From a virus: 64,000 nt of DNA. The notes below the pieces were generated by a model. It was not told the DNA's origin and did no database searches. It saw only the letters and a list, made by a program, of their open reading frames with translations. The translations under genes and the position numbers were made by a program. Positions within the stretch are counted from its first letter, which is position 1. Each line of letters opens with the position of its first letter. The stretch is taken from the IMG/VR virus record IMGVR_UViG_3300045988_176782, positions 32,001 to 96,000 of that record; one strand, written 5' to 3'. Shown one piece after another: positions 787 to 45,005 of the stretch.

Positions 787-1794
787 ATGGCGCCTGGATG
801 GATTGTGGTTATATGTATTGTTGGATTTTGGATAATATCAACAACGGTTTTTAGTGTTTATTTATTTAAAAGTCTTAAGAAAGATAAACAACTCAAACAA
901 ACAATACAAGAAAAAGAAGAATATCTTGAAAAATTAGATTCTCAAATAAATAGCTTACATTTACAACTTACTGATTTAACTAATAGTTATAATTGTATTT
1001 GTGTAGATAAGCAATATGCTAATGATGAATTGCAACAACTTGTGCAACGATGCGACATACAATAGATTCAATTAAATAATCTTAATTCTACCATTAAAGA
1101 AAAGAAAGATTTTATTGAAAATGGAATTGAGTAGTTAGCCACGGCAAAGCATAATGAATTAAAATTACGCTTAGAAAACGAAACTAAAGAAGCTGACGAA
1201 AAAATTACAAAAGCACGATAGGATTGCGAATTATTAATTGCTAAATATACTTATGCCGCAAAAGACGCAAAAGATTAGTATCTTGCAGTTATAAGTGCGT
1301 TAAATAAAGTTGAAGAAAATTTAGTTAATATAATTAATATTTCTGATGCAGATAAATCAGACATAGAATTATTAACAACTTATGTAATTCCAAAAATTCA
1401 ACATACTGATACAATCTATAAATTGATTTGGTCAGAATATTATCAAACTCCGACAAACGAACTCTTAACAAATATTCTTCCAAATAATGATTGCTCTGGT
1501 ATTTACAAAATTACGAATTTAGAAAATAAAAAATGCTATATTGGCCGCTCCACAAATGTAAAGCGTCGTTTAATTGACCATATTAAAAGTTCTATTGGAA
1601 TCGGTACTATAGCAAATCAAAAAATACACGATGTAATGCGAGAAGAAGGGTTATGGAATTTCTCTTTTGAGCTTCTTGAAGAATGTGCAAAAGACCAATT
1701 AGGCGATAGAGAAAAATATTATATTGACTTCTTCCAGTCTAACCAGCCGCAATTTGGATATAATGTTGTGTCTGGTAGCGCATTTAAGGGGTAA
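787..1794 (+). CDS. membrane-anchored coiled-coil protein with C-terminal T5orf172/GIY-YIG-like nuclease domain (335 aa, 4 in-frame TAG)
   Basis: One frame joins ORF-track 787-1065 and 1423-1794 through TAG at 1063, 1132, 1219 and 1276, with no TAA/TGA. N-terminal TM helix, then coiled coil, then SGIYKITNLENKKCYIGRSTNVKRRLIDH (T5orf172-type GIY-YIG motif). Confidence 0.7.
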
Positions 1795-1796
1795 CA

Positions 1797-2213
1797 ATGC
1801 TTATACAACAATCAAAACCAGCAGAAAAAGATACCCAACTTTATATTAATGGAAACAATATTTCGTACTTTATTTCAGAACGCGGAGAAGGAAAAACCGC
1901 GGAAACTTTACGGCAAGCCATTTATCGTGGAAATGTTATTGTTGCACCTTGGGAAAAACCTTATGAACAATACGGTTTTAATAGATTTTGCGATAACGTA
2001 GTAAAACGAGACTATAAAATTACTTATTTAACACTTCATCAAATGGAAAAAATAAATGAAGAGGGCTTAGAAGAAAAATACAGTGAAAACCACCCTTTAG
2101 AAGTTTGTGTTGATGAAGGTCGTATTTTACTTCAAGAACTTTTACGAGAAAAAATTGGTGTGCCAGTTAAAGTTAATTTTATGGCTTTAGACACAGGAGA
2201 TATTGATACATGA
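1797..2213 (+). CDS. hypothetical protein (138 aa)
   Basis: ATG 2 nt after the previous stop. Intact ORF in an operon-like array. Confidence 0.55.
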   Translation: MLIQQSKPAEKDTQLYINGNNISYFISERGEGKTAETLRQAIYRGNVIVAPWEKPYEQYGFNRFCDNVVKRDYKITYLTLHQMEKINEEGLEEKYSENHPLEVCVDEGRILLQELLREKIGVPVKVNFMALDTGDIDT

Positions 2214-2518: not shown

Positions 2519-2527
2519 GATAAGATT

Positions 2528-2743: not shown

Positions 2744-2753
2744 GGTATAAAAC

Positions 2754-4802
2754 ATGGATGAATTAGTTGCAATGATTGAACAATTACTTCAACTTGAAGA
2801 TTCAGTATTTAATGCTTCTCGTGAATTAATTGAAAAACGTATTCTTGAATCTCTTAGCGGCCCAGAAGGTGAGAAAGCAATTCACGCTACTGCGAATGTT
2901 TTCCGTCAAGAAGGATACAGCCGTATGGAAACTGTTCAAGCTTTAGAAACATTAAAAGAGAATTATGCTAATTTATTAGACTCTTTTAAAGGAAAAACCG
3001 AAAGCGAAGAAAAGAAGAAGTTTTTGGACAATCTAAAAGCCTCTTCGGTAGCATATTTTAATGCAGTTCTTCCCGTTTATGAAGCAGAACATCCCACAAT
3101 TTCTATTCAACTTCTGCGAGAAAGTGCAAAAGTCCCAACCTACGCGCATCATGGTGACCAAGGTTGCGATATTTACGCCGTAGAAGATACAATAGTAAAA
3201 CCGCGTACTTATGGTAATTTAATTCACACAGGAATTAAATTAAATATTCCACAAGGATGGGCCGTGGCGATTCGTCCTCGTTCAGGAATGAGTAAAAAAA
3301 CTCCTCTACGCTTGAGCAATTGCGTAGCAACCATAAACTAAAAAGGTTAAAAATAATGGCAAATTATTTACAAGGCTTAGATGATTTTATTCTTCAATAT
3401 TATCAAACTCTAAATACAAAACAAATCGCAGAAGCTTTCTCTTGTGACCCTGGAACAGTAAGAAAACATAAACAAAAATTAGGTATTTCTACTGAGCAGG
3501 AAAGAATTAAAAAATTACGAGAACAAACAGAATATATTTGTTCTCAATATGGAAAAAAGACAAGCACTGTATTAAGTAAAGAATTATCTTGTTCTACTTC
3601 TTTTATCTTTAAGATTTGGACAGAAAATCACTTGAGCGGGTCTATTTCAACAATATATTATTCTGATGAACAGCAATTTGAAACTATAGACACTCCTGAA
3701 AAAGCTTACTGGATTGGCTATATTGCTGCAGATGGTTGTTTATATGATAGACAAGGGCACCAGTCTTTACTTTCTTTATCAGTAGAGCAAACAGACGAAG
3801 AACTACTTCTAAACTTTAAAGAATTTTTACATAGCGAAAAACCCATAAAAACAGTTAAAGACGCTCGCAGAAATACTTATATGAGCTCATTGCAAATTAC
3901 AAGCAATAAAATAGGCAATGACTTAAAAAATATTGGAATTATTCCACAAAAAACTTGGGCAATTGATTTAAATGCAGTATTATCTCATATTCCAAATAAA
4001 TATTTCAGTGCATTTTTATTAGGATATATGGATGGTGATGGCAGTATTACTCGCGTTAATACTTCCAATACAATTTCTAAATGCCGAATCGCTATTGTTG
4101 GTCCAACAAGTTCTATGCAAGTTATTGCAAAGAAACTAACTGAATGGGGCATTGATGCTCATATAAATGAATTAAAAAGAGAGAAATATTCTAACTCTTT
4201 TAGCGAATTAAGTTTAACAAATAGTTCTGAAAAATATTGTTTTTTAAAATTGCTTTATACATACAACATTCCTTGTTTAAAACGAAAACAAGAAAGAGCG
4301 AATGAATTAATGCGAAGAATAAAAGAAAATGTTACTAATCGCGCGGAAAATAAAGAAGCCATTAAAAAGTATCAATCTGTGGTTGTAAAATGGGAAGAAT
4401 TGCTGGAAGCCTGAAATGGTAATCAGCAGCCGAGCCTAAAGCGTCAATAAATAACTTTAGGAAGGTTCAACGACTAACTGGTGAGTTAAGACAAACAATA
4501 ATCCAGACACGAGCATCCCACATCGTAAGATGATGATATAGTCTGAACAATAGAGAATAATAATCTATTGAAGTAAAAATTAAATGTTTTTACGATAACA
4601 TAATTGAGATAGCGGCTATCGCGGAGAAATTTGTGTGCTCTTTGATAATTTTTCTGATGAAGAAATAACAATACATCAAGGAGACCGAATTGCACAATTT
4701 ATTTTAGAAAAATGTTATAATGCTGATTTTGAACAAGTTACTGAAATTGCAGAAGATGAAACCGAACGTGGTTCAGGCGGTTTTGGGAGCTCAGGAAACT
4801 AA
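2754..4802 (+). CDS. dut: dUTPase with N-terminal extension, split by a group I intron: join(2754..3334,4607..4802), 258 aa
   Basis: Exon 1 ends ...YAHHGDQGCDIYA...IRPRSGMSKKTPLRLSNCVATI. Exon 2 reads DSGYRGEICVLF...GDRIAQFI...RGSGGFGSSGN*. Together they restore the dUTPase motifs (RSG, IDxxYRGE, GDRIAQ, RGxGGFGSxG). An in-frame TGA sits directly upstream of exon 2. Confidence 0.8.
3335..4606 (+). mobile_element. group I intron (1,272 nt) carrying a LAGLIDADG endonuclease
   Basis: On the + strand, in order: P AATTGCTGGAAG 4398-4409, Q AATCAGCAGC 4421-4430, R GTTCAACGACTA 4465-4476, S GATGATATAGTC 4532-4543. The 3' end is ...CGATAACATAATTG (omega-G 4606). Boundaries are fixed by dUTPase motif continuity, +-3 nt. 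Confidence 0.8.
3356..4414 (+). CDS. LAGLIDADG homing endonuclease (352 aa), intron-encoded
   Basis: Two LAGLIDADG motifs: YWIGYIAADGC and LLGYMDGDGSI. ATG 3356 follows AAAAGG. The ORF-track start at 3320 (TTG) lies in exon sequence. Confidence 0.85.
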   Translation: MANYLQGLDDFILQYYQTLNTKQIAEAFSCDPGTVRKHKQKLGISTEQERIKKLREQTEYICSQYGKKTSTVLSKELSCSTSFIFKIWTENHLSGSISTIYYSDEQQFETIDTPEKAYWIGYIAADGCLYDRQGHQSLLSLSVEQTDEELLLNFKEFLHSEKPIKTVKDARRNTYMSSLQITSNKIGNDLKNIGIIPQKTWAIDLNAVLSHIPNKYFSAFLLGYMDGDGSITRVNTSNTISKCRIAIVGPTSSMQVIAKKLTEWGIDAHINELKREKYSNSFSELSLTNSSEKYCFLKLLYTYNIPCLKRKQERANELMRRIKENVTNRAENKEAIKKYQSVVVKWEELLEA

Positions 4803-5530
4803 TGGCAATTAATATTTATACCGTCCAAAGCGATGCTATGGCTAATGGTTGGATTGTTTTGGACGAAGAATATAAAAATCTTAAAACCCCTATGAAGTGG
4901 TAGTGTCCGAAAGGGCATATCACTTCATAGACTTATGAAGATTGGAGAAAAAAACATCGGTGCGTAGAATGTGAAGAAGGCGGTTTATTTATTGCAAGAA
5001 ATAAGATTCTCCCACCAACTTCAGGCGTTTATCGTGTTTTATCTCTTGATGCTGCAACAGGAACAACAGGATGGTCAATTTTTGATAATAAGAAATTAAC
5101 TTCTTATGGAACCTTTTCAACAAATTCAGAACATTCAGCGACTGAGCGCATTAATGAAGTTAAAAAATGGTTAGCAAATAATTTAAAAATTTGGCAACCC
5201 AATGGCGTTGGAGTTGAGAATATTTAGTATCAACAACAACGTGGAGTCAAAACTTTTCAAACTTTAGCCAATCTCCAAGGCGTTTTAGTAGATTTTTTAT
5301 ATGAAAATGGATACAACTATTTACTTGCAGGTTCCTCCACTTGGCGCTCATATGTTGGTTTAAATCACGGCGATAAGCGAGAAACTGCAAAACAAGCAAC
5401 TCAAAATTGGATTTTATCACAATACAATATTTCAGCAACTCAAGATGAAGCTGATGCAATAGCGATGGGAGTTTATTTTTCTCATCAATTATATGATAAA
5501 AAGAAAATTACCTGGGGCGAAGAAATTTAA
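4802..5530 (+). CDS. RuvC-like Holliday junction resolvase with N-terminal zinc-ribbon-like segment (242 aa, 3 in-frame TAG)
   Basis: ATG overlaps the dut stop (TAATG). TAG at 4901, 4928 and 5225. VLSLDAATGTTGWSIFD ... GVENI-TAG-YQQQRGV ... QDEADAIAMG is the phage RuvC-type catalytic D/E/D pattern. Stop TAA 5528-5530. Confidence 0.7.
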
Positions 5531-5908: not shown

Positions 5909-5916
5909 AAAAATAA

Positions 5917-5947
5917 AGAGGGTAGCAGAAATGCTACCCTCTTTTTT
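5917..5947. terminator. bidirectional rho-independent terminator between convergent operons
   Basis: Stem AGAGGGTAGCA / TGCTACCCTCT with a GAAA loop, A-run upstream and T-run downstream. It abuts the stop of the - strand fibre gene (TAA 5946-5948). Confidence 0.75.
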
Positions 5948-8900
5948 ATGCTTCAACTAATTTTACAGTTTTTCCTTTACTTGTGATTGTCCCATCATAA
6001 TATAAGACAAATTCTGCTTGACTTGCATCTTGGCTACCAGCCATTAATACAACATCTTTAGCGTTCTTTGCGGTGCCGTTTAGGCATACATAACCTTCAC
6101 CGCTACCAATGGTTAATTTTCCCGTTAAATGTAAATTACCATTCTAATCAGTGTATAATGTTTTCTATTTACTCGTATTATACATCGCTAAACCATACTA
6201 AGAATTAGCATCAGTAGTTCCAGTGTAATGGCGGCCTAATTGGACTAAACGATTACCAGACTAATCATAGACTTCAAAACCATTTTCACTTGTAATACGA
6301 ACAGAATTATTTTGCGCGCCAATCCTTAATCCATTCCAATCTAAGGAAAGTAATTCTGTTCCCTTTTTCTGGAATAATAAGCCATTCTCATTGAATCTTA
6401 CGAAAGTTGTAGTATCAATATTTAAAGCATTATTAGTAGAGCTAACAGTAGTATCATCGCCAAAGGCATACAAGCCACTTTCATTCCATTGGAAACGAGT
6501 TTGATCACCGCTAAGAATACGAATAAATTTAGTATCAATTTGACCTGCGGTAATAAGCGAGGCGTTAATGCCTTTTGGTGTAATGCCCGTACTCCAAATT
6601 CGTTCGCCTTCTGCGTCAACAGAGTCAGAACAGAAGATGCCACCACCAATTAACTTAATCTAACCATAAACTCCATTGCGATAAGAGCTTTCATTGGTAA
6701 TAATCATACCGCCAGATTTATCTAAGGTAAGAGTGTTATTACCAAATTCAAAGTGCGCATTTGTGTTATCTAAAGTTTGTTGTAGTGTTTCTTGCGCAAT
6801 TTCGCCATTAGAAGTAAATGCCTATGCCGCAATATTATATTGAGTTTGATTTTGCTTCATTGCTTCATTTTGAGCAGAAATTGAAGAAAACAAATCTTCA
6901 AATTTTGTCTTATAATTAGCAATAGTGATTGTATCTTTAGAGGGCTAATCTAATTGATATTTTATGCCAGAAACATAACCACGCTCACGTTCAGCATCAA
7001 TTGTCCAGTCACAAACATAAACAAGTTGGCCAAGTTCAATATGTTCCATTTCGTCAGGAATATTTCCTATTTCAACTTCATAAGAATATTTAGGCTTGGA
7101 ATTATCCTTTGCAACTTGCCGCGCATCCAAATATAGCATCTCATTCGCACGAGAAACCTAATAAATAATATTATAATCAAAATCAAGAATATATTTAATT
7201 AGATTATTGTTTGTAACTTTTAAAGTAATATATGGTCGCCCTTCACGAAGCATAATTTGGTAATCTTCGTATTTAATTAAATCAGGATTATTTTCTACTT
7301 CGCCTTCAGCATTAATAGTATGCGTAGCATTACAATGAACAACTAAATTATCAGAATTATAATTAACATTTCTATAATCTAATTTAACTCGTGGATAAAC
7401 AATAGGATATTGAGTTATGTCATTAGAGGTAATTGTTAATTTTGGGTTATATTGTCGTACTGCTGTTGCGGACGCAGCATAAGATACTTGAGTGTAATTC
7501 TCATAATTAATGTCTGTAGCATTAAGTAATGCAACTGGAATAATATGAGGATTATCTTTATCCTTACTTGTATTTAAGAAAGAGAAAATGAAACCGCCAT
7601 TATTATAAAGACTTCTTACGCCTAAAAATTGTTGTAAGCCTGCAAAACGAGAGGTAATGTCGATTGCCAAAGAAGAAGCTTCCTCTTTAGATAACCATAA
7701 AATAGGTCGTAATGTTGTATTTGTGGGAGTATTATAATATAATAAAACTTTTCTAATATAACCAAAAATAGGAGTATTGTCTACAACGCCAGTATCACCT
7801 GGGTCTAATTTTAAATATAAATGCGAACCTTTAGGCAAAGTATCCGGAAGATTAAAATAGAAGAAATCAGAGTTATAACAAATTCTATATTGCTGAGTTT
7901 TTGTTAATCCAGATTCTTCCGTAATCTCTGCGCTAAATTCAGGATGCTCAAGTTCAATAACAAATTCTTCAACATTATCTAAAGCGTTAGACTGATATAA
8001 TTCTGAAAGATCAATATAAGGGTAATATTTATTTTCGTATTTTACCGCAGTTTCTGTATTAGCAATTACATAATAATTCTTCTATTCGTCCTCAAATAAT
8101 TTATCATCAAAAATATAATAAGTATTTGTTTCAGGATGACTATTCTCTCTTGAAAATACAGTATTAATGCCTTGGCCTGGATCTTCATAATCTTCTGCTT
8201 GCCAATATCCTTCACGAACCGCGGGGCCAAGTAAGCGTTCAAATTGGTAATTTAAATCTTCTTTTTCTTTCTATAATTCTTCACGAGCAAGAGTATTATT
8301 TTGTATCTATTGATTTAAACCGCATTTGGTAATGTTTGGATCTTCGTGGTCAATCTTTTCTTCAAGAAGTTTAATGGCATCTTCTTTTTCCACAATTGTT
8401 GCTTCAAAGCGCGTGCAAATTGCTGCATATTTATTCTTTGGCCAATAAGATAGTTTGAAATACACAATGGCGCCAGTTGAAAAATTATCAAAACCAGTTT
8501 GACTATTCTCTAAAGAAGTATAAACTGTGCTTGGGAAACCATCTTCATCAGTCATAATAAACCAATCATTAGGTAAAGAAGCGGCTTGCCCTGGAGAAGA
8601 TTTTACAAAATAAGGCGCCGGTATATTAGGGTCTGTGCTACCATATTTAAATAAACATTTTTTGCCTTTAGAAGGATTGTGTTCGTAGGCAGAATTGTTA
8701 TAGCATTCAATCGTAGAAGCATCAATACCAGTAACTCTAAATGTACCTTGGTTTATATTTGAAGCTGTTTGTGGAACAAGCGTAACAGAATAAGAGTTAT
8801 GCTCATCTTTTACAACGGGCTGTTTATAAGTATCATTATCGCGTAAAGTTTGATAATTGCCTAATTGCTCTTGTGCGCTTGCTAATTCCGCTTTTGCAGT

Positions 8901-10346
8901 AGCCAATTCTGCTTGAGTGTCATTTAAGGAAATAGTTAAATCATTATAATCTTGCTCTAATTTAATATACGCGCGATTGATGATATTTAACTATGTTTTA
9001 TAAGTATGTTCAATCCAATCATATTGTTCATCAGTGACTGAACCAATAGAATGAAGATAATCAAAGTTAAGAATAAATTCATCCAGTAAAGGATTACTTG
9101 GTGTATCCGCAATACTAACATAACCAGTATCAGAAATTTCAGACTGTAAAGGAGTTACATACAATTTCGTATAAATTTCACTGCTATCAATAGTGCGGCT
9201 AATAGACTGCAAATTATGTTGATAATTAATCGTATATGGGTCATCAGTTTTAATCGCGCGATTATAAAATACAACTCGTTTGCCTGTCCAAACGCGGCCA
9301 ATCTCATCCCAATAGGTGCCACGAAAATAGCCGTGGTCATCTACTTCATACTCATAAGTACAAAATACGCCAAAAGCTTCTGCAATGTCTTGGGTAATAT
9401 TATATTTATTGCTATTAGAACAATTTACATAACGCGCTTTTTCTTCAAAAGAGGTTACTTTTGTGGGTACTAATTGTTCATATAAAACTTTGTCATTTTT
9501 ATCTTTTACTGGCCAAGTAATCCAATTGGTAACATAAGCATCTTCGTAAATAGTTTCTTCATCACGAATTTGATACAACTATCTACTTGAGCCAGAATTA
9601 ATAACTAACCAATTTTTATCCTTATTATTTAATGTTTCTGCCGCGCCGCGTGCATTATAAAAACTACATCCATCTAATTGTGCGGCCATACCACCGTCAA
9701 TAAGGAAGTCACTTACATCCTAAAAATAACCGCGCCAGTCCATACGGATTTCATAACTCCAAGGAGTAAGCCAACGAATGACATTACCAGCTTCATCGCG
9801 GATATTCGGAAACACTTTATCTAGCCAATAATTAATATTGGCGACAGTATCACTATCTTTAGCAAAATCAATTTCTAATGTGTCTGCGGTTAGTTCAAGT
9901 TTATAACCAATTTTACCCAATTCGGCAAAAGCCAATCCATTACCAGTGACTTCTTTATAAACTCCAAAACTATTATCACGCCGATTTACAATTTTATCAA
10001 TAATGAAAGGAAAAACTTTTGTAATATAACCATCTTCAACAGAATCATCAGCGAATTGAATACTAACTTTTAATACTCGTGTATTTTCTGCTAATATTCC
10101 AGTTTCAATGTCTTTCCATCTTGGATTAGTAATTCGTTCATTAGGAACTTCACTAATGAAATATTTTGGAATTTTTAATGTTAAGGTCTGCGTTCCATCA
10201 TCCTTTATCTCCATCGCCGGTTCTACGACTTGACCCAAATAGTGGTCGTCATAGGACTACAAGTTTCCGATAAAATTGTCTTGTAGTCCATAGACGTCAA
10301 TCTTATATGGGCGGGATTTTTGAGATAGATTAAATTTAACGCTCAA
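5946..10346 (-). CDS. tail fibre / tail-associated (Tal-like) host-recognition protein, 1,466 aa, 15 in-frame TAG
   Basis: Single frame from TTG 10346 (6 nt after GGAGGG, with an in-frame TAA directly upstream) to TAA 5946-5948. I walked every gap between the ORF-track pieces and found only TAG, never TAA/TGA. It is the last gene of the tail module, after Dit. Confidence 0.7.
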
Positions 10347-10368
10347 TTAAATCCCTCCAATACTCTTT

Positions 10369-12051: not shown

Positions 12052-12057
12052 AATCCT

Positions 12058-24427: not shown

Positions 24428-24449
24428 ATTTCTTCTCAACTCCTTTTAC

Positions 24450-25396: not shown

Positions 25397-29813
<4,417 letters not shown>

Positions 29814-31070: not shown

Positions 31071-31072
31071 AA

Positions 31073-33688: not shown

Positions 33689-33715
33689 TATCTTTACTCC
33701 TTTTACTCATATGGA

Positions 33716-33738: not shown

Positions 33739-33756
33739 GCGAATTTATCTTAATCA

Positions 33757-34803: not shown

Positions 34804-34822
34804 AATCTTATACCTCCAACTA

Positions 34823-35362
34823 TTAAGCTTCTAAGATGGTGTACTTAATCGCCTTTTCGCCGTTAGGAACAGTAGTATACTTTACTACCTGGCCATAAGC
34901 ACCGGAAGTGGGCTTAGTGGCGGTTACCTTGGGACGGCCATCACCAGCTACGGGTACAACATATAGAGGAGTAGTATCAAGAGCCTTCATAGCTTCTTCA
35001 AAAGTCTTTAAGTTGGCAAAATCACCCATATCAAAGCAGTTAGTGGTGAAAATGTCGCCAGAGTGTAGAATACCTACACGGGGATAAGCGCCAGCTACAT
35101 CAAAATGCTCTTTTAAACCATATACATAGCGGCCCCATTCCTTTTCAGTGGTGTAAACGATACCATATTGTACAGTATCAGCAGCAGGTAGCTTAATTTC
35201 TTGATTAGCAATATTAGCGTCTACCCACATACCGTTCTCACAAGGAGCAGCGGCAGTAAATTCATCAGACAGAGGAGTCTGAGAACGAACTAAACCATTC
35301 TTTAGATATGCCGCACGATTCATTTCTAGGCTGGCATACTTAGAAAGTGGAAACTTAGCCAT
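34823..35362 (-). CDS. head protein of unknown role (decoration/auxiliary capsid protein?), 179 aa
   Basis: Intact ORF with no TAG, between the scaffold and capsid genes. Confidence 0.45.
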   Translation of the reverse strand: MAKFPLSKYASLEMNRAAYLKNGLVRSQTPLSDEFTAAAPCENGMWVDANIANQEIKLPAADTVQYGIVYTTEKEWGRYVYGLKEHFDVAGAYPRVGILHSGDIFTTNCFDMGDFANLKTFEEAMKALDTTPLYVVPVAGDGRPKVTATKPTSGAYGQVVKYTTVPNGEKAIKYTILEA

Positions 35363-35378
35363 AATAAATTCCCTCCAA

Positions 35379-36677: not shown

Positions 36678-36691
36678 TTTGATTCACCCCA

Positions 36692-38248
36692 TTAGGTAGC
36701 CCCGTCGATATTTTCATTAGTGCGGTCTGCACGCTCTTCAATACTCTTCGTAGGACGGCCACCTTCATTAGATAAGTTGGGAGTAGAAGTAGTCTTATTA
36801 GGAGTTTTTTCATTATTTTTAGAATTTTTATCGTTGGAACTTTGAGTATAACTATTATTTAATGGCACGAGTTTTTGGTCTAACTTCGCGGTCTTATTTT
36901 CATAATCAGAAAGTTCCATTAAATCTATAGCATCTAAGCCAAGTGCGCTACTAACCATTGTTTTTGGATAGCCATATTGCGCCGCTTTGAGATACATATC
37001 TACACTATCTTTTTGAAAGATTGTAGAAATTGGTAGAAACTTAATAGTGCAATAATTATTTTCAGATTTTGTGCGGTTGCGCAAAACCACATTCAACCAA
37101 ATCTCATACTACTTACTCCAAGAAAACATAATGGAAATATCTTTTTTAATAGAATAAGTAATCGCGGTGCTACCATTAGAAGAATTAAAGATTTGAGAAG
37201 TTATACCCATATCGTCATAAACGCTGGAAGTATATTTCTATAAACGACTTGTAGAGCTGTTCGCAGCGGAATCTGGTTCTTGTACGCTTTCCAAAGAAAT
37301 ATCTGCATAGGTTGTTAGAACATCAATTGTGTCGTTATCGCCTACCATATTGCAAACGCTTTGGTGCAATTCTTGCGCCTCTTCCAAAGAAAAAAGCAAT
37401 TCTCCTGTAGATTTGTCTACAGGTAATTTTTGGATTAGTAGTTTTTGTAGTTCATTTTTGTCGCGTTCTGCTTCTCTGTCACGGGCGCCCTAAAGGTCTG
37501 CAATAGCATCCATACCAGCAATAAGAGGAGGGACTCCTTCCTCATTAAACATAAAACACATCCCCCCTTCTACGGCGGGGATTTCAATCCAAAGTTCGCT
37601 CACTTTTTTCTTGCGATACAGAGCCTAAACATATTTTGGGAATAATTCTAAAATGCTTTTTCGTTCTGCCTCATCGTATGCGATATTATCAAAATAGGCC
37701 GCATTTAATTCAAGAACGGGCAAACCAAATTCATCATTAAACCTTGTGCGGCAATAGCGGACAGGCAACTAGTAGAAAATTGGTTGGTCTTTTTCTCCCA
37801 CTTTCATAAAGCCATAGTATATGCCTTCGCGTAAGATGACTTTATTAATTTTAGGCAAAAGCATCTCTAAATTCATAGATTTCAAGAATCTACAATTTTT
37901 GTTGTAAGTATTTTTTAAGTTTTTAGGCGCATTATCTAAATTATATTGCGGAATAACGATATAGTTATAAGTAAGTAATGTCGCCATATAGGCAATAATT
38001 CTATCATAAATACCGCTAAATCGCGCAAAGTAAAGTGATAATTGCCGAATAAGAGTTGGATTGCCAGAAGCAAGAATGTCATTAATTTCTTCTTTGGTAA
38101 AACCTTTTGTGGAAGTTGTACTATATACGCGGTTATACCTATCATTTAATGCACGTTCTGTTCTAGGCGCGCGATATGATGCCTTTTTTGCAAATTCAAT
38201 AAAAGCATTAATATCGCGAGGTTGGGTGTTTTCTGGCAAATTAATCAC
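36692..38248 (-). CDS. portal protein (518 aa, 5 in-frame TAG)
   Basis: GTG 38248 follows GAAGG. ORF-track 37769-38248 and 36692-37096 share one frame. The gap was walked: TAG at 37109, 37238, 37490, 37625 and 37769, no TAA/TGA. It follows TerL and overlaps the TerL stop. Confidence 0.65.
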
Positions 38249-41200
38249 CTGCCTTCTTTTTACTTGATGAGAAGAATGTCATTGCGCCAACACCAGTTCG
38301 TTTTTTGTTGCGACGGGTTTCTTTATCTTCGTATTCTTTAATGCGATAAAGTCCATAGGCTAGAGCAGAAACACGGTCTTTGTTTATACGTCTAGAAATC
38401 TATTCTACTGCTAACTGGTTAGCAGCGCCAGTGGGACGCAATTTTAGGTTATTAATCTCATCTATAAGTCGCGAGGTCATTATGTATGGTAAGAGGAATT
38501 TTTCTCTCTAATATAAATTCATTCGTTGGCCTTTTTTGGTTGATAGTAATTTTTCACGTGCGATTCTTTCATTGGCTAAAAGCAAAACATTTCCACTGTT
38601 CATTTGGATATAAAAGTTAGAATATATTTCGTTGTTAAGGGCAGCGTTGGCTTTTATGTTGTAGATTTTTGCCTCAACTCCACGAGGATGGGGATAAGTG
38701 TCGGGGTCATTAGAAACATAAAGTGCGCCGTATTGTTGCCCTTTAGGGCCAATGGAGGGAATAACAAGTTGGTCAAGTAGACCAGTACCGATAGTGTTTG
38801 CGTCAATTACGATGTCGCGAGGATTAAAGAGCTCGTTAAGTTCTTTAATGCGTGCGGCTTGTTCGGGGAAGGACATTTTTGTTAGATTTTCAGTATAAAC
38901 TACTTTCTTCGTCCAACCGTCTTGAGAAGGCAGGACTTTTATAATCATTACAGAAGTATCATTATTTCCTGTACGTGCTACGTCTCATTATTATTTCGGT
39001 AAGGTCGCTACGCTTACCGCATGGAGCTTTACATCTCTGTAAAGATTAGACTATATTTTCATCTATGATAGATGTTTCTTCTTTCGGGCGGCAATCGCTT
39101 CCGTCCTACTCCACATTGGGATAGTCGTTGAACCAATTTTCTAATATTTGTTCTATTTTACGAAAATTTGTATATGAAATTATTAAATAATTATAACCTT
39201 GCTGTTTAGCTTCTCGTTCTTTTAAAATATCTCGTTCTTGGCGTTCAGCCAAAGGTAATTTAGATTCAAATTTGACAAACTCTTTGTAATGTTGCTCTCC
39301 ATGGTATTCTATAATTAAATTATATTCAGGTATATAAAAATCATATCTATATCGTGGATTAGATTGCCATTTAAAAGTTGCTTCTTTTTGGAAAGAAATT
39401 TTTTGCGAATCTAAGTAATCTACAATTTTCTTTTCGCCATGACTCATTTTATCTGAGCATCTTGGACAACCAGCATGGCCTGATAGCAAAGCGTGAGGAG
39501 AAATTTTTCTAATAAAACCACATTTATGTCTCATTAGAATTTTTGTATCCGTGCCTTGATATTCTTCTAAAGGTTCGTAGTCTTGTGGAATTAAAGAGCG
39601 AAATACAACATCATTCATATCATGATGAGATTCACAAAAAGGACAAGTTTGGGTTTTTAAATAATCTTGTTTGCTTTTTTCAAAGATTTGATTACATTTT
39701 TCACACAGGACTTTTACAGTTTCCTTTTGTGTGTGTTCGCGGTATCCCCAATCTATAAAAGTTTGATTGGGATTATTATTAATTAATTGTAAAATTTTTT
39801 CTTTATTTTGTTTTTGTATGGCTTTATAAGCCGTCCTGCCTAAGCACTCGCAAATTGCTTGTCCATTCCTAATAAAATTATAAAAAGAAGAGTAAGTTCG
39901 TCTTTCTCCACAAGTTAAGCATTTAATTGTAAAAGGCTTACTAACTTTAGTATATTCAATAATTTCATAAGGTTGATTAGGGAATTTATTATTAATTCTT
40001 TGTTTAATTTCATCAATGATAATAATTTTCATAAATAGAATACCTCCAAAATTGGTGCTGATTGCCCTTTTGTAGCATTTAGGTTTACACCATGTGCCTT
40101 TTTGTTATTTGTTTCTGCTTTCGCGGCGTCATTATATTGAGGTAGATATAATTAGCATAACAAAACTTTCGGGGTTCCCAGCTTTTAAAGAAATTTTAGC
40201 ATCTCTTGTCACCAAGAGAGTCGGCAGAATTTTACCGAAATGATATAGAACATTTTTGGATTGCTTGAGGATTTAGCTTTTCTTTCAGCGTTAAGAAGCT
40301 TACGGATTTTGATAAGACGGTTAGAATTAAACCAGCTATCAGAATTACTACCTGTCCAAATTGACTGCGATTCCTTTATTTTTTTTCATATAAATTCGCT
40401 ATATTTATATCTGTTTTTACAGCTTATATTTTCATATAAGATAAGACTATATCTTCACCCTAAAATATTTAGGGGTTCGGCGTTAGAGCGCTTGCTCATT
40501 TAGTCGTTGAGCTAATAAGTCAGAATTTAATAATGTTTCATCATTATATGGTATTTTAATTAAAATAATATCATTATTTTTACAGTATTCAGCTTTATCT
40601 TTATCACATTGTTGCTGTTTAAGAAAAGCTTGCTCACCACCAAACCATTTAACAGGTTGGTAATGCTGGATGCCATTATATTCAATAGCATATTTCTTAT
40701 TGCTTTTTTCTAAATAGAAATCAAAGCGTAATACACGATGCTCACCACAAGGAATGATTTTTTGTTCTTCAAAAATAAAATTATATTTTTGTAAATATTC
40801 TCGTACTTTTCGTTCCCCTTTACTTGCCCTACAACGAGGGCATCCAGTGCGTTCCTTTAGAAAATGATAACAATCTACTTCCCAAATAAAACCACATTGG
40901 TTATGACGTACTTTAAAACGTCTTTGATGTTTAGAATTATGAGTGGTAGGTGCAACTCGGGTGTATTCATTGCCCCATGTTTGTTCAATACGATAATCAA
41001 TCATTTCATCGTTTAATAAAGCAAAGTTAGCTTCGCACCAAGGGCATTTTGTTCCTTCTTCTGTATAAGATACAGCAAAGGGCGCCCGAGAAAATGTATG
41101 CCCACATTTTCTACATTGCCAGTCTATTTTTTCTTTCCATGACCAACGGATGTCTTCAATTGCGAAATCTAATGGAATTAAAGAACTATTTTTAATAATT

Positions 41201-42517
41201 TCCATTCGTTGCTTTTGCAAGCCAGTTCTGCCAGCAGTTTCACATTTATTACAAATATCTAAATTACCACGTTTAGCCCGCTTCTTAAAATTACTGGCCA
41301 CTTTAAAAGTGAAATGAGAACCACATTTATTACAAACAATTTCACATGGATTTTCTGTACCATTAAAAGTTACAAAATCAAAATCAGATGTGGGTAAAGC
41401 TTCTTGTAAAATATCATGATATTCTTGTTGAGTATATTTCATATTAAATCCTCCTTATTAGTTGCTGATTGCCCATTAGCAAGCCCTTAGCGTTGCCGCT
41501 TAGGCTCATCCAAAAACTTATTTCTGCTTTCGCTCCGTCATAATTTAAGGTAAATTATTGTGGCATTTTGGCTTTAGGGGTTTCCAGCAGTTAACCGAAT
41601 TCTATAACTATATTACTATAGTTTCGCGCAAATCTACGTGCAAAGCTGTCCATATCAAAAGTCGCGCTCATTCGCTGTTCATTAAGAAACTTCTTATTAA
41701 GCAAACCATAATGCACAGGTAACTCATATGAACTGCCACAGACAAAATAATCGTCTGGGTCAATTACTTCATTAACTACTAGTTCAATTAATTTTTCATA
41801 AGCAAAGGTAGTTTTGCTACCCGCACTAGTAATATAAATTTGTTGGGCGTGAGGTTCGTCCGCATTCACGAAACCATTTACTTGAGGCCTAGGTACATTC
41901 ATCATGGGGATTATTACCTCATTCAGCAAAGTCCCATCTATCAAGGCAGCTTCCTCAACTACGCCACCCGTTGCACGCTAGCCACGACTTGAAGCAGAAA
42001 GAGCAAGAACGTGGAAAATGGAACCATTCTTAAATTTCATTTCAATATAATCGGTGCTTTGCTTTAAATATTCAAGCTCGTTTTTAAGTAGCGGCCACCA
42101 ACGAAAGATTTCTTCTATTTTTTGTTTTGCAATATCCAAAGATGCTTTTTTGTATTGAGAAACCAAAAAGCGCTTACTATTGGGTAGAAATATGCAAGAC
42201 AAGATTTGAGAGAGTATAGCAATGAAAGACTTTGAAGTTGCGCGTGTGAATGACCCGAAGAAGTATCTGTATCGCGCGCACGCTCGCAACATAACCCTCT
42301 GATAATACATTAATTTAATTGGACAATCGCGGCTTGAAATCATATCTAAAAAAAGGTCAGGGTAAAGCCGCCACTTCTCACAATAATATTGGATTAGGTC
42401 TTCATTCTATTCTACCCATCGTTCATCAAGCACAACACCTTTTTCTACTGGTATGCCGTCTCGTAGAACATTACCATTAACACGGAAGCTGTCAATTGGA
42501 TTAGTTAATTGCGTCAT
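38241..42517 (-). CDS. terL: terminase large subunit, join(42517..41636,40373..40234,38985..38241), 588 aa, 4 in-frame TAG
   Basis: GSFTRATSKSF (Walker A-like) ... SSRG-TAG-RATGGVVEEAALI (Walker B region) ... DSFAR|ESQSIWTGSNSDSWF ... KMFYIISV|DVARTGNNDTSVMIIKV (nuclease domain). Junctions obey U(-1)/omega-G. P1 of the downstream intron is perfect (UUCGGU pairs with GCCGA). Confidence 0.8.
38986..40233 (-). mobile_element. group I intron with zinc-ribbon/Vsr-like endonuclease (TerL intron 2)
   Basis: P AAAAGCTGGGAACCCC, Q CAATCAGCACC, R GGTTCAACGACTAT, S GATGAAAATATAGTCTAA. P2 is CTCTTG/CAAGAG. The intron ends ...AAATAATAATG. Confidence 0.8.
39046..40032 (-). CDS. intron-encoded endonuclease: multiple CxxC zinc ribbons plus C-terminal Vsr/DUF559-like PD-(D/E)XK domain (328 aa, 1 TAG)
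   Basis: CLTCGE...CEC, CEKC...CPFC and CPRC pairs, then YRYDFYIPEYNLIIEYHGEQHY (the D...E-x-x-G-x-Q-H pattern of Vsr-like nucleases). TAG at 39106. The ORF ends ...DENIV* inside the S element. Confidence 0.7.
40374..41635 (-). mobile_element. group I intron with zinc-ribbon/Vsr-like endonuclease (TerL intron 1)
   Basis: P TTAACTGCTGGAAACCCC, Q CAATCAGCAAC, R AGCTCAACGACTAA, S GGTGAAGATATAGTCTTA. P2 is AACTATA/TATAGTT. The 5' site after ...GCACGU is supported by protein continuity (FAR|ESQSIW). Confidence 0.75.
40483..41442 (-). CDS. intron-encoded endonuclease, paralogue of 39046-40032 (319 aa)
   Basis: Same architecture: CNKCGS...CNKC, CRKCGH...CPWC, CPRC, then LRFDFYLEKSNKKYAIEYNGIQHY. 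RBS AAGGAGG. Confidence 0.7.
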   Translation of the reverse strand: MKYTQQEYHDILQEALPTSDFDFVTFNGTENPCEIVCNKCGSHFTFKVASNFKKRAKRGNLDICNKCETAGRTGLQKQRMEIIKNSSLIPLDFAIEDIRWSWKEKIDWQCRKCGHTFSRAPFAVSYTEEGTKCPWCEANFALLNDEMIDYRIEQTWGNEYTRVAPTTHNSKHQRRFKVRHNQCGFIWEVDCYHFLKERTGCPRCRASKGERKVREYLQKYNFIFEEQKIIPCGEHRVLRFDFYLEKSNKKYAIEYNGIQHYQPVKWFGGEQAFLKQQQCDKDKAEYCKNNDIILIKIPYNDETLLNSDLLAQRLNEQAL

Positions 42518-43689
42518 CGTCATCATCCTCCAGGTCCATAGTATCTTCATATTCTATGGAACGAAGAGTTTCTTCTTCGGTGTCGGTATCTTCGTAGCTG
42601 CCGGTTTGTTCTAAGCGGTCAGCCAATTCAAGTTGCTTGCGGCGGTCTTCAACCTAATCGCCAATGCTACTTTCATTTTGCACCAAACGCTTAAGATGGT
42701 CTTGGATACATTTTATAGTAAAGTCTGCACTATCTTGCGGCTCAGTATGCCAATTCATCTTTTTGCCGCGTTTCTCCAAGTAAGTGAATAATTCACCTAC
42801 ACTGTCAAAATCGCCGGTTGATTTGCTGTTTTTCGGTTCAAAACCTTCAGCTTTGATAATATTATGATACATCATAAAATTTAAAAGAGTTCGCTAAGCT
42901 CTTCCCATGGGGCTGCATATTACTATGCAGATTAGACTATATCATCACCTTGCGGTGTTTCCCGTTTCAGCCCGCTTGGGCTTACGCCTTTCGGCTAGTC
43001 GTTGAACGTCCCTTATAAAAATAAGGTTTCGCTGCTGATTGACCATTGTTGTATGGTGTTCCCAGCAATTAGAGAAATTTTACATGGACGTGTATCAGTT
43101 CATCCATTTCTTTTTTAGCGTCTTGACCACTACGGATTTTCTTATTAATTAAGAGTCCGACCTCGCACAGTCTCTTGGCATCGTCGCGCTAAGTTGCTGT
43201 TACAAGGTTTTGCGTAGCAAGTAAATCATTATATAAATCTTCCAAATAATGATAATCTTCAACTGTTCTTTCAATTTCGGCGGGCCATTTTCGTTGCATT
43301 CTTAGCATAAAGGCTTCATCTGCGCCATCTAAAAAGTCGCCTAATGTTCCAAAACTTTCCTCTTCCTTCCACTTCTCATTCATTGTTTCCCAATCAACAG
43401 ATTGGTAAGTTGGATTTTCACTAATTTGTTTGGCGTAAAGGTGAAGTGTGCGCTCTTTTCCGGAGCGTGCTAACTTCGTCCAAAGCTCCACACTAAATGG
43501 CCAGTCAAGCCACTACATCAACTTATTAACTGCGGCCAGGTCATCGTATGGAACCATACGCTCCAAACAATCAGTACAAAAGAGGCTTGTGCCCGCGACT
43601 TGGAAGGGGCTTTTGGTTTTTAGATATTCGGTTTGGGTTTTTTCTATCTTGCATTTTGGGCAGCGTCTTGTTTTTTCTATTCCTGCCAT
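42501..43689 (-). CDS. putative small terminase / packaging protein with N-terminal zinc ribbon, join(43689..43102,42872..42501), 319 aa
   Basis: ATG 43689 follows GGAGG. RRCPKCK...CTDC, TAG at 43513, 43189 and 42654, acidic tail ...EDTMDLEDDDDDAIN*. It overlaps the TerL start. The TerS role is inferred from position only. Confidence 0.5.
42873..43101 (-). mobile_element. group I intron, ORF-less, 229 nt
   Basis: P TAATTGCTGGGAACAC, Q CAATCAGCAGCG, R CGTTCAACGACTAG, S GGTGATGATATAGTCTAA. P1 is perfect over 6 bp: exon AUGGAU pairs with GUCCAU (U-G at the site). The intron ends ...AATTTTATG. Confidence 0.8.
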
Positions 43690-45005
43690 TATTGAGTTTC
43701 CTCCTATTTTTTACAGTTTGCTTCTTTGCGTTGGCGCCGCATTTTTTGGCACACCTTACACTATACACAATAACCGGTTTTGGTCGCTTTGTTGCGTCCA
43801 TAATAGAGTTCGTGAAGTGGTTTAAGTTGTCCGCAACAAGTGCACCGTTGGAGAGGAATTTTTTTTGTTTCTGTATCGCTTTGTATCCGCAAAATAGTGG
43901 CGGTTTTAGCGATTTTTTGAGGAATTACTTTTTTCATTAGATTAGAAACTTGCTAATCAGATAAACAAAAACCTTCTTCAATTAAAATTTTTTGAATTAA
44001 TGCTATACTGCGGTGTGCAACACGTTGGCGCAATAGGAAGGTTTCAAGGTCGGTTAATTTCGTATTTTCAATAAGGCGTTCTAAGTCCCAACAAATCATT
44101 CGTGTGGTGCTGTCAGGGTGGGGATAAGAGCGCTTTAAGAGAGAAACATAATTATCAAGTAGGGCGATGATGTGTTCGTAATTTTCGTAATTTAATTTAT
44201 TGTCGGAAATCTTCCAATACATTTTAGAAGCAGAGTTGCGTTCTGCGTCCTCATAGGAAGGTTGCTCGGTGTCGTAGGGTTTTGGTTTGCGTTTGCGGAC
44301 GCACCATTCTTCTTCCTCAAGCCATAGGCCGGTGTTGCTTTCAAAATCAACTGGGCCTTTGGTTGGCGGCGCAATATTAAAGAAATGGAGGGTTGGATTA
44401 TATGAATCTTTAATGTAGTATTGTTGGCGGCGCAAATCAATTAAAAGATGTTGCATTTTATACAACTAATACTTCGTAATGGGGTGCGCCCTTACCCATT
44501 CGTCAGGCGGAATTTTGCCTCTATACATATCATAATGCAAAGAAATGCGGTCAATAGATTTCCAAAGTTCCCTCATAAAAGGTATTTCGTTTCCTTCATT
44601 GTCAAAGTCGTCGCCATATTCTAAAATGTTGCCGTTTTCATCGTATTTGGTGCGGCGAATTTCCTACTTAAAAACTTTGTAGGGGGATTTGTTTTCGGGG
44701 GAGACGGGTTTGGCGTTGTTTTCTATGTCTTGCGCCACAACCGGGTCTTCCAGGAGCGTGTCAAGGGATTCAGTTTCTTCGGCTTTGGTTTGGAAACTGC
44801 TGTAGCGGCGTTTAGGTTGGAGGATTTCTTTGGTGTCAACTACACTTAGATTTTGGTCGTCTTTGCCGTAGAGGATGTAATCCGCCATTTGCTCCAGGTC
44901 GGTGTGATTTGGGGTTTGGGGTAACTCATCCAATATTTCTGCTATGGCATCTATGCGGTCATAGGTTGAATATATATCGTAGTTTAAACTGTAAGCTTTT
45001 TTCAT
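43689..45005 (-). CDS. sigma-factor-like / late transcription regulator with C-terminal zinc ribbon (438 aa, 5 in-frame TAG)
   Basis: ATG 45005 follows AAAGGTGA. ORF-track pieces join in frame through TAG at 44664, 44466, 43953, 43761 and 43704 (gaps checked). ...TDLETFLLRQRVAHRSIALIQKILIEEGFCLSD-TAG-QVSNLMKKV resembles sigma region 4 (HTH). CTCCG...CVxCKVC tail. First gene of the late operon. Confidence 0.5.

Follow-up and report, generated by a model that had tools for sequence, protein, structure and literature searches.

A human-gut SPbeta-like siphovirus in which UAG is very probably read as glutamine late in infection

The 64,000-nt window analyzed here, from IMGVR_UViG_3300045988_176782, is part of a ~165-kb phage genome from the human gut; its features are collected in Table 1. 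Plus-strand genes at 1-5908 are followed by minus-strand tail, head, packaging and sigma-like genes and then by a plus-strand early-type block with almost no Pfam matches. Two labels taken over from a first-pass annotation of this DNA, 'Dit' and 'fibre', stand as positional names only, with no PHROG match for the fibre protein and no PHROG or Pfam match for Dit, while its 'T5orf172' label corresponds to a GIY-YIG domain. The host of the phage is probably a member of the Bacillota, for which the host search returned weak matches to metagenome-assembled genomes.

Table 1. Features of the window, with in-frame TAG codons per gene.
Feature	Position	Strand	TAG	Details
Coiled-coil protein, C-terminal GIY-YIG (T5orf172-like) nuclease domain	787..1794	+	4	Ends TAA; Pfam GIY-YIG 3.2e-09; PHROG homing endonuclease 1e-18
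dUTPase, intron-split	2754..4802	+	0	Exon 2 ~4606-4802
LAGLIDADG homing endonuclease in dUTPase intron	3353-4411			LAGLIDADG_3 match
Group I core in dUTPase	4327-4570			49.6 bits
RuvC-like Holliday junction resolvase	4802..5530	+	3	Ends TAA; Pfam RuvC 1.2e-05; PHROG 159 1e-16
Tail protein, 'fibre' by position only	5946..10346	-	15	1466 aa; ends TAA
Protein downstream of tape measure, 'Dit' by position only	10369..12051	-	9	560 aa
Tape measure exon 2	12058..22026	-	37	3322 codons; ends TAA; PHROG 4211 positions 769-1165
Tape measure intron	22027..22363	-		Rfam RF00028 65.5 bits; core 22064-22359
Tape measure exon 1	22364..24439	-	11	692 codons; PHROG 4211 positions 560-767
Tail-tube (YomU-like) gene region, short exons	25400..29700	-		L017 tube protein; Rfam matches
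GIY-YIG homing endonuclease, tail-tube region	25603-26322	-	0	Presumed intron-borne
GIY-YIG homing endonuclease, tail-tube region	26742-27710	-	2	Presumed intron-borne
Predicted ORF-less group I introns, tail-tube region	28253-28478, 28540-28866	-		Rfam
HNH/NUMOD homing endonuclease, tail-tube region	29013-29612	-	1	Presumed intron-borne
YomW-like, virion/head-tail	30579-31088	-	5	
Virion or head-tail gene	31073-31810	-	1	
Predicted group I intron at gene boundary	31805-32104	-		Rfam
Virion or head-tail gene	32092-32538	-	4	
Virion or head-tail gene	32779-33225	-	1	
Major capsid (YonB-like), putative decoration, scaffold (YonD-like)	33757..36677	-	0	~960 codons
Portal	36692..38248	-	5	Ends TAA; PHROG 2739 1.9e-73, residues 12-516
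Large terminase (TerL)	38241..42550	-	4	599 aa; exons 42550-41636, 40373-40234, 38985-38241
DUF723/HNH-type endonuclease in TerL intron	39046-40032	-	1	
Group I core, TerL region	40423-40577			
DUF723/HNH-type endonuclease in TerL intron	40483-41442	-	0	
YonG-like, upstream of TerL	42501..43689	-	3	319 aa spliced; Pfam YonG_N on homologue
Predicted ORF-less group I intron in YonG-like gene	43101-42873			Rfam 93.6 bits
Sigma-factor-like	43689..45005	-	5	438 aa; ends TAA; PHROG 5767 1.5e-13; L017 homologue aligns at 44993-43716
Early-type block, ~29 short genes	45300..64000	+	0	Stops 20 TAA, 9 TGA
tRNA-Leu(CAA)	56678-56765			Early block
tRNA-Lys(UUU)	57036-57111			Early block
tRNA-Ile(UAU)	57115-57190			Early block

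Group I introns, predicted to be self-splicing, split the tape measure, TerL, YonG-like and dUTPase genes as well as the tail-tube region, and at least 10 cores lie in a 45-kb part of the window. Five matches to Rfam RF00028 exceed the curated score (56-94 bits), and six further matches of 22-50 bits adjoin homing endonuclease genes. The tape measure intron, with predicted boundaries based on the U/G splice rule together with the protein profile, starts with TAA and contains more stops; joining its flanks between ESP and ENIGSALK restores continuity of the PHROG 4211 profile, from position 767 to 769, and yields a protein of 4014 aa. The part of the dUTPase gene upstream of its intron covers only positions 2-60 of the 129-position Pfam dUTPase profile, and the C-terminal motifs are translated downstream. 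In the tail-tube region, with at least five cores, the three presumed intron-borne endonuclease genes differ in their presence among relatives, and a partial exon map is given by the tube protein of the related contig L017, which maps to 28044-27748, 26629-26498 and 25462-25400. TerL exons were mapped on the one-piece L017 TerL and on the TerL of phage phAss-1, revealing two introns of ~1.25 kb, each with an endonuclease recognized by PHROG matches. Intron A of TerL is missing from relative L002, while L001 lacks both TerL introns and, precisely, the intron of the YonG-like gene. Once spliced, the tape measure, TerL and YonG-like gene models stay in frame and are free of internal stops.

Restricting stops to TAA and TGA lengthens the longest ORF from 434 codons to 3323, a length beyond chance given that the DNA has 37% GC and off-frame ORFs reach at most ~165 codons. 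Greedy gene calling over 1-45300 gave 85 genes at a coding density of 0.747 under code 11 and 46 genes at 0.949 with TAG as a sense codon, a comparison of the kind proposed in the first-pass annotation (translation table 15 versus 11); reading TGA as sense gave no comparable gain (0.774), and the density of 45301-64000 was insensitive to the reading of TAG (0.817 versus 0.823). Over all gene models there are 112 in-frame TAGs, every terminator is TAA or TGA as had been claimed, and TAG terminates no gene in any block, off-window genes included. The per-gene TAG counts reported earlier for the tape measure (48), fibre, Dit, portal, TerL, sigma-like, RuvC-like and GIY-YIG genes were all reproduced, although that for the tape measure requires two ORFs to be joined, because the gap 22363-22027 is a group I intron; for TerL, the ORF 41591-42712 and the spliced gene both hold four. 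Between the TAGs of these ORFs, no TAA or TGA occurs. The accompanying statements that every break between fragments of a gene is TAG and that no gap contains TAA or TGA thus hold for the recoding breaks, but not for the intron splits listed above. One TAG of the sigma-like gene lies five codons before its TAA, and such near-end TAGs are indistinguishable from true stops.

The recoded genes are unevenly distributed. With TAG counted among the Gln codons, it accounts for 106 of 605 (17%) in the late block, alongside 449 CAA and 50 CAG, versus none of 100 (57 CAA, 43 CAG) in the early block (Fisher test, 3e-8). TAG-bearing late genes encode virion and packaging proteins, the sigma-like factor, the RuvC-like resolvase and some homing endonucleases. 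Beyond the window, the genome was followed through a closed tiling of near-identical contigs, which is a mosaic of several strains rather than the window's own contig; there, the lysis cassette is recoded too, with five TAGs each in the SpoIID and NlpC/P60 lysin genes. TAG reaches 30 per 1000 codons in lysis and tail genes and is absent from the genes for the most abundant virion proteins, namely major capsid, scaffold and decoration. In view of these TAG-free virion genes and of the replication genes, the earlier description of TAG as a sense codon throughout the replication and late blocks is overstated: only two of the ten genes at 1-5908 contain TAG, and ligase, gyrase, DnaB, Pol III alpha-like, RecJ-like and RNase H genes on near-identical contigs have none in ~6000 codons. 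Since they contain no TAG, as sense codon or as stop, the early and core replication genes are readable in the standard code of the host.

About 12 tRNAs were found genome-wide in the tour through near-identical contigs. No tRNA(CUA) came to light in the window or the closed tiling, whether with ARAGORN, with Rfam or with a custom search for cloverleaf structures; as a control, ARAGORN recovered all three CUA tRNAs of phAss-1. In addition, a crude motif scan of the reconstructed genome found neither a release factor-like GGQ motif nor class I aminoacyl-tRNA synthetase motifs. A missing tRNA(CUA) is not unusual, as suppressor tRNAs have been detected in only ~40% of published TAG-recoded genomes.

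The lack of a detected suppressor tRNA, release factor or synthetase would also be expected if UAG were a leaky stop, with poor read-through attenuating the late genes and leaving mostly truncated products, and complete avoidance of TAG by the most abundant virion proteins likewise fits a costly decoding. A leaky stop is nevertheless very unlikely, given 48 TAGs in the tape measure and 15 in the fibre gene: at 50% read-through per site, the full-length yield of the indispensable tape measure would be ~1e-15. Moreover, past the first TAG of each gene, 967 synonymous and 213 nonsynonymous differences separate relatives (82% synonymous), purifying selection being equally strong before and after the TAGs, and no real terminator is TAG. 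A second explanation consistent with the search results for the reconstructed phage genome is that UAG already means Gln to the host, or that the host has an amber suppressor, and that the phage matches its host with no switch. Such a host would always read UAG, however, and the partition between TAG-free early and core replication genes and late and lysis genes, in which TAG makes up 17% of Gln codons, would then be pointless; the standard code is used by those hosts of such phages that have been published, and code 15 is not known from any bacterium. An altered host code is accordingly regarded as highly improbable.

The identity of the inserted amino acid was addressed with L003 and L017, relatives ~53% identical, by DNA-level alignment with X set at TAG, so that the alignment was blind there. 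CAA or CAG lies opposite 26 of 54 aligned TAG positions (48%), compared with 41.7% conservation of ordinary Gln codons and a Gln background of 4.2%, in agreement with the match to published TAG-recoded gut phages read with code 15 that had been proposed. No other residue exceeds 11%, and the log-likelihood for Gln is ~60 units better than for the next-best amino acid (-111.6 versus -171.3). In relatives with ~95% nucleotide identity, most TAGs are kept and exchanges are mainly with CAA or CAG, the opposite codon in 15 of 23 TAG/non-TAG differences; CAA, two base changes away, is the commonest partner of TAG. Fibre genes of close relatives have TAG or CAA/CAG at the TAG sites, the positions in the gene at 787..1794 are TAG or CAA in L007, and all three TAGs of the RuvC-like gene are kept in L007. 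Among 119 portal homologues, Gln makes up 80% and 60% of the columns at two of the TAGs. The two sites singled out earlier as plausible for Gln bear up well: SSRG-TAG-RATGG of TerL is SSRGQRATGG, with CAG, in two relatives, and ENI-TAG-YQQQ was confirmed within the RuvC-like gene. Family profiles also span the TAGs, that of the portal running end to end over all five and that of the tape measure being contiguous. The evidence thus strongly supports TAG as a sense codon for Gln, the reading assigned to it by code 15.

A sense reading of TAG as pyrrolysine, Tyr, Lys, Glu, Trp or Leu could draw on the presence of the single-step neighbors AAG, GAG and TGG among the replacements in close relatives, and on the label 'Pyl' that ARAGORN gives to any CUA tRNA. 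It is extremely unlikely in view of the predominance of Gln codons opposite TAG, the likelihood difference, and the commonest partner lying two mutations off; no pyl genes were seen. Assembly or sequencing errors and decaying pseudogenes, suggested only by the fragmentation that the genes show under code 11, have a negligible probability, since the same TAGs recur in independent assemblies (25/30 in L001, 31/34 in L002, 26/30 in L007, 20/23 in L008 and 35/35 in L018) of a lineage whose proteins were seen on hundreds of contigs, recoding breaks are exclusively TAG and never TAA or TGA, and selection is purifying.

The window is thus very probably from an SPbeta-like siphovirus of the human gut, with a genome of ~165 kb, in which UAG is read as Gln in the late phase of infection. 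Following the model of Borges et al., in-frame TAGs would block late and lytic proteins until the cell has been switched to UAG reading. RF1 must be outcompeted or disabled, because a tape measure with 48 TAGs needs near-complete read-through at each site. From the lack of a canonical tRNA(CUA), release factor or synthetase, it may be supposed that this lineage reassigns UAG efficiently with some unrecognized agent for the switch, a rather doubtful proposal. Candidates neighbor one another off-window: a tRNA-Phe-like gene of 116 nt whose anticodon loop has a 50-nt insert; a ROOL RNA; and a free-standing YqeY protein (GatB C-terminal-like, of a tRNA-Gln-binding type), which adjoins an RNA-ligase-like protein and the tRNA cluster. 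Another possibility is that the phage disables RF1 and leaves UAG to be read by the host tRNA-Gln(CUG) through first-position wobble.

Because the standard code shatters its hallmark genes into >80 fragments, such a phage would be misannotated or missed. As a probable late-phase reader of UAG, it offers a well-resolved case for the model in which stop-codon recoding times late and lytic expression, and it exemplifies the unsolved part of that model, heavy recoding without a recognizable suppressor tRNA; the example is concrete, as contigs allowed the genome to be followed in full. Since lineage proteins are present on hundreds of human-gut contigs, it is also practical for proteomics or tRNA sequencing. 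Separately, proteins of this lineage were noticed in the protein collection searched, with Gln at the TAG positions.

Gut phages with TAG read as Gln and with recoded late and lysis genes have been described (10.1101/2021.08.26.457843), proteomics has proved Gln at TAG for crAss-like phages alone (PMC9523058), and phAss-1 has likewise been described as reading TAG as Gln (PMC10607447). With the code 15 gut phages (crAss-like, Lak, and the Firmicutes-infecting Agate, Sapphire and Jade clades of Borges et al., the last compared by description only), the present phage shares Gln opposite TAG, recoding concentrated in structural and lysis genes across several modules, early and replication genes that fit the standard code, loss of TAG as a terminator and low GC, and the Agate size range includes its genome of ~165 kb. 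It differs in its SPbeta-like virion module and very dense introns, and some Agate and Lak genomes have a suppressor tRNA or RF2, of which none was found here.

Another large siphovirus of the gut is phAss-1 (OQ749652), for which the genus Phassvirus has been proposed and which NCBI lists under 'Caudoviricetes code 15 clade'. Its TerL, portal, tape measure and fibre genes all have TAG read as Gln, its tape measure is very long (3149 aa), it encodes class III RNR, RuvC and dUTPase, and proteomic trees place it near Spbetavirus. It is distant, with amino-acid identities of 38% (capsid), 39% (TerL) and 29% (portal), and has 36 tRNAs including three tRNA(CUA), against ~12 with none CUA in the present lineage; its description makes no mention of introns (PMC10607447). 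A megablast search of the phage collection gave no match. Membership in Phassvirus was rejected, given hallmark proteins 29-39% identical, no nucleotide match and a different gene order.

Precomputed Pfam matches on near-identical and related contigs reveal the families YonG_N, YonD_N, YonB, YomW, YomV_2nd, YomU_Tube, YorF and YorH in common with SPbeta (Spbetavirus), which resembles the present phage in being a large siphovirus and in the great length of its tape measure. In SPbeta, group I introns lie in nucleotide-metabolism (RNR) genes; SPbeta uses the standard code, whereas in the present phage introns also interrupt virion and packaging genes. In an unsystematic look through the gene lists, no integrase was noticed. 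Staphylococcus phage Twort is a further intron-rich phage. Cluster J mycobacteriophages are reported to have spliced capsid and tail genes (PMC3706429). As in these phages, structural genes here are interrupted by group I introns, part of which contain homing endonucleases, but with at least 10 cores per 45 kb, including those in the tape measure and two in TerL, and in combination with recoding. The phage is thus a previously undescribed, SPbeta-like addition to the phages known to read TAG as Gln.

Across the window (GC 36.9%, 64 kb), the longest stop-to-stop ORF spans 434 codons under the standard code and 3323 codons when only TAA and TGA are treated as stops. Greedy gene calling over positions 1-45300 returned 85 genes at a coding density of 0.747 with translation table 11. 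When TAG was read as sense, the number of genes fell to 46 and the density rose to 0.949; for positions 45301-64000 the density was nearly unchanged (0.817 vs 0.823). Reading TGA as sense yielded a density of only 0.774 over 1-45300, and neither TGA nor TAA reassignment gave a gain in ORF length or density comparable to that for TAG. All nine TAG-bridged ORFs in the table terminate with TAA or TGA, as the first-pass annotation had stated, and its TAG counts per gene were reproduced exactly. The pattern is real and beyond chance.

Coordinates of features in the window and on other contigs of the lineage
Feature	Sequence	Position	Strand	Detail
TAG-bridged ORF	window	12058-22029	-	37 TAG
TAG-bridged ORF	window	22361-24445	-	11 TAG
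TAG-bridged ORF	window	5946-10346	-	15 TAG
TAG-bridged ORF	window	10369-12057	-	9 TAG
TAG-bridged ORF	window	36692-38278	-	5 TAG
TAG-bridged ORF	window	43689-45299	-	5 TAG
TAG-bridged ORF	window	41591-42712	-	4 TAG
TAG-bridged ORF	window	4760-5530	+	3 TAG
TAG-bridged ORF	window	697-1794	+	4 TAG, from start codon 787
Spliced tape measure model	window	12058-24439	-	4014 aa, 48 TAG
Group I intron	window	42913-43156	-	above Rfam threshold
Group I intron	window	31805-32104	-	above Rfam threshold, 56 bits
Group I intron	window	28540-28866	-	above Rfam threshold
Group I intron	window	28253-28478	-	above Rfam threshold
Group I intron	window	22064-22359	-	above Rfam threshold
Intron region	window	2754-4802		
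Intron region	window	22027-22363		
Intron region	window	25400-29700		
Intron region	window	31805-32104		
Intron region	window	38241-43689		
TAG-free late region	window	33757-36677	-	neighbours heavily recoded
TAG-free late region	window	27670-28155		neighbours heavily recoded
TAG-free late region	window	29828-30592		neighbours heavily recoded
tRNA-Leu(CAA)	window	56678-56765		
tRNA-Leu(UAA)	L010	5021-5106		same locus
abiF RNA motif	L042	11809-11845		
ROOL RNA	L042	12080-12650		RF03087, 310 bits, full length
YqeY-domain and RNA-ligase-like genes	L042	13981-15775		both TAG-free
tRNA-Phe-like gene	L042	19021-19136		116 nt, Rfam tRNA 52 bits
Weak tRNA match	L042	19853-19923		resembles degenerate Ile(GAU)
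Radical-SAM group	L046	10271-12148		
Radical-SAM group	L048	1-2614		
Radical-SAM group	L016	16629-19353		
Fibrous/Ig-like module	L011	11282-20656		
Fibrous/Ig-like module	L016	12247-15922		

To establish which amino acid TAG encodes, the window was compared with related contigs. Most of its TAGs are conserved in close relatives (a comparison that also took in the fibre, RuvC-like, and GIY-YIG genes), and in 15 of the 23 cases where only one of the two genomes has TAG the facing codon is CAA or CAG; CAA, two base changes away, is the commonest partner. Two more distant contigs, L003 and L017 (~53% protein identity), were aligned with X placed at TAGs to exclude bias. Of the 54 TAG positions aligned there with a sense codon, 26 (48%) are matched by CAA or CAG, against a background Gln frequency of 4.2% in the same columns, and ordinary window Gln codons are conserved at 41.7% (n = 309). 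Among the 20 amino acids, Gln had the highest likelihood (-111.6), followed by Asn (-171.3). The TerL site previously offered as a plausible Gln, SSRG-TAG-RATGG, reads SSRGQRATGG with CAG in both contigs. In 119 homologues of the portal, Gln accounts for 80% and 60% of the residues at two TAG columns, a count that alone is partly circular because the protein collection writes TAG as Q for recoded contigs; the DNA-level test is free of this circularity. Furthermore, past the first TAG in each gene, 82% of the differences from close relatives are synonymous (967:213), as compared to 70% upstream, which indicates that translation continues beyond the TAGs.

TAG usage, counted with spliced gene models, differs sharply between gene classes. 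In the late block (virion, packaging, and some nuclease genes up to 45.3 kb), TAG accounts for 106 of 605 Gln codons, reaching 27-29 per 1000 codons in the richest genes, as compared to 0 of 100 in the plus-strand early block at 45.3-64 kb (Fisher, 3e-8), where genes stop with TAA (20) or TGA (9) and never TAG. The early block is also GC-richer (~0.40 vs 0.35) and less densely coding (0.82), with CAG making up 43% of CAA plus CAG codons versus 10% in the late block (45300-64000 vs 5946-45300). The first-pass claim that TAG is sense throughout the replication block was overstated: on the plus strand at 1-5908, TAG is confined to the GIY-YIG and RuvC-like genes, and in near-identical contigs the off-window ligase, gyrase A/B, DnaB, Pol III alpha-like, RecJ-like, and RNase H genes contain none in ~6000 codons. 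Off-window SpoIID and the NlpC/P60 lysin carry five TAGs each, and a 764-aa protein carries 14. TAG is absent from four late-block genes (major capsid, scaffold, decoration, and YomV-like) and from one tube exon, with 49 Gln codons in total and ~9 TAGs expected at the block average, which suggests that the late proteins with the highest expression are under selection against it.

Not every interruption is a TAG. The earlier statements that every break between fragments is TAG, and that no gap contains TAA or TGA, hold for the TAG breaks and fail for introns in the tape measure, TerL, and other split genes. At least 10 group I intron cores occur in 45 kb, an unusual density: five exceed the Rfam threshold, and six weaker ones adjoin homing endonuclease genes. 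The six intron-associated endonucleases are LAGLIDADG, GIY-YIG (two), HNH/NUMOD, and DUF723/HNH (two), and intron presence differs among relatives with ~95% identity. The introns split dUTPase (with the LAGLIDADG endonuclease), the tape measure, the tail-tube region, a YonG-like gene, and TerL; nrdD is likewise split in relatives. The tape measure is one gene of two exons: the upstream ORF covers profile positions 560-767, the downstream ORF covers 769-1165, and a predicted splice at U22364/G22027 joins ESP to ENIGSALK. The spliced product is longer than the 3149-3209 aa reported for phAss-1, a published TAG-recoded gut phage, and its relatives. By a rule of thumb of ~0.15 nm per tape measure residue, the modeled protein would predict a tail of ~600 nm. 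TerL, mapped on the one-piece L017 gene, comprises three exons (599 aa, four TAGs) and two introns of ~1.25 kb, each with a DUF723/HNH-type endonuclease, and its predicted splice junctions are FAR|ESQ and IISV|DVAR; both introns are absent from the close relative L001 and one from another, L002. The intron at 43101-42873, exactly absent in L001, interrupts the YonG-like gene upstream of TerL (predicted junction EMD|MYH) and not TerL itself. For the tail-tube region (25.4-29.7 kb), the exon map is partial: a mosaic of short exons with at least five intron cores and three endonuclease genes. The 56-bit intron lies at a two-gene boundary, overlapping the last codons of 32092-32538 and ending before the start of 31073-31810; L001 and L002 have ~770 extra bases at this site.

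The portal matched its family over its full length, through all five TAGs (1.9e-73), and family matches were also obtained for the tape measure, sigma-factor-like protein, RuvC-like resolvase, several homing endonucleases, dUTPase, and an NrdG fragment. The gene first labeled T5orf172 matches the GIY-YIG nuclease family, its count of four TAGs standing. The TAG counts for "Dit" and "fibre" were likewise confirmed; these labels reflect position only, as profile searches found no family match. TerL had no match in Pfam and nothing relevant by sequence among solved structures, and its label is based on homology to the phAss-1 TerL, position beside the portal, and a weak PHROG match. Precomputed Pfam matches in the virion module of L018 (99% identical) and L017 (53%) are to families named after Bacillus phage SPbeta proteins (YonG, YonD, YonB, YomW, YomV, and YomU), and YorF and YorH matched in the replication module.

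Decoding must be nearly complete at every UAG for a protein with 48 of them to be made, so an efficient decoding agent must exist. The window encodes three ordinary tRNAs (Leu-CAA, Lys-UUU, Ile-UAU). The rest of the genome was toured in near-identical contigs, through viral-contig and metagenome scans, exact protein look-ups, and contig look-ups, until the tiling, a mosaic of several strains, closed; the right-end window gene, sought as an anchor, had no record. Off-window tRNAs comprise a cluster (Trp-CCA, Asn, two Met, Ser-GCU, Leu-AAG, Pro, Leu-CAA), Thr-UGU, a 116-nt Phe-like gene, and a degenerate tRNA-like sequence. No tRNA with a CUA anticodon was found in the window or tiling; relaxed ARAGORN settings returned only noise, with CUA absent, and a custom search for stem-loops presenting CUA beside a T-arm returned nothing credible. 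ARAGORN recovered all three phAss-1 CUA tRNAs, so the search method works. In the Phe-like gene, 50 nt of structured sequence interrupt the anticodon loop, between the anticodon-stem strands (a 43-nt intron in Phe(AAA) according to ARAGORN); with its anticodon AAA or undefined, the gene offers no simple CUA reading and was rejected as a suppressor, as was the Ile(GAU)-like match. A crude motif scan detected neither a release-factor GGQ motif nor a class I synthetase signature. No recognizable code-switch gene was seen in the toured mosaic. In the literature, only 40% of TAG-recoded genomes have a detected suppressor tRNA, and some phAss-1 relatives also lack one.

Several other features of the lineage were observed. 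At the locus where the window and contig L009 encode tRNA-Leu(CAA), contig L010 has an unrelated tRNA-Leu(UAA), a cassette-like swap of tRNA genes. Upstream of the tRNA cluster on contig L042, a free-standing YqeY-domain protein, of the GatB C-terminal-like type that binds tRNA-Gln, adjoins a 442-aa RNA-ligase-like protein; that the pair handles tRNA in a phage reading TAG as Gln is a speculative possibility. A ROOL RNA and an abiF motif lie between the lysis cassette and this cluster. Radical-SAM enzymes with tSAM_targ_Cxxx_rpt partners, one carrying five TAGs, form a peptide-modification-like cassette. Far from the main virion module lies another group of large proteins (fibrous, Ig-like, or glycine-rich), many with TAG, that have in common a repeated N-terminal motif (MAEKILQTRIQLKYDT..NW); this second module resembles an extra set of tail fibres or surface proteins.

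No near-identical phage was found in GenBank. Two IMG/VR contigs (165.6 and 168.2 kb) share ~95% identity with the window, and one is circularly permuted relative to it, indicating a genome of ~165 kb, of which the window covers ~39%. Host searches of bacterial genomes produced matches of 30-38% identity, all to MAG contigs; most of these were Bacillota, and some were obviously mis-binned. Such weak sequence matches would favor gut Bacillota. Portal identity to large Firmicutes siphoviruses, e.g., Lactococcus 949/P1048 and Bacillus PBC2, is ~26%. The relationship to phAss-1 is distant (identity of 38% for the capsid, 39% for TerL, and 29% for the portal), and the lineage lies outside that phage's genus. 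It may belong to one of the large Firmicutes-phage clades of Borges et al., among which Agate has a fitting genome size.

The window represents a phenomenon already known from gut phages, in which late genes are recoded TAG-to-Gln (code 15); for crAss-like phages, proteomics has proved it (PMC9523058). The clean partition by gene class, the lack of a recognizable code-switch gene in the toured genome, and the intron density add some interest beyond this. The match to published TAG-recoded gut phages proposed in the first-pass annotation is borne out by the Gln alignments and the late-gene TAG pattern; the partition in this lineage is that published for recoded phages, in which late and lysis genes are recoded in several modules and replication genes remain standard.
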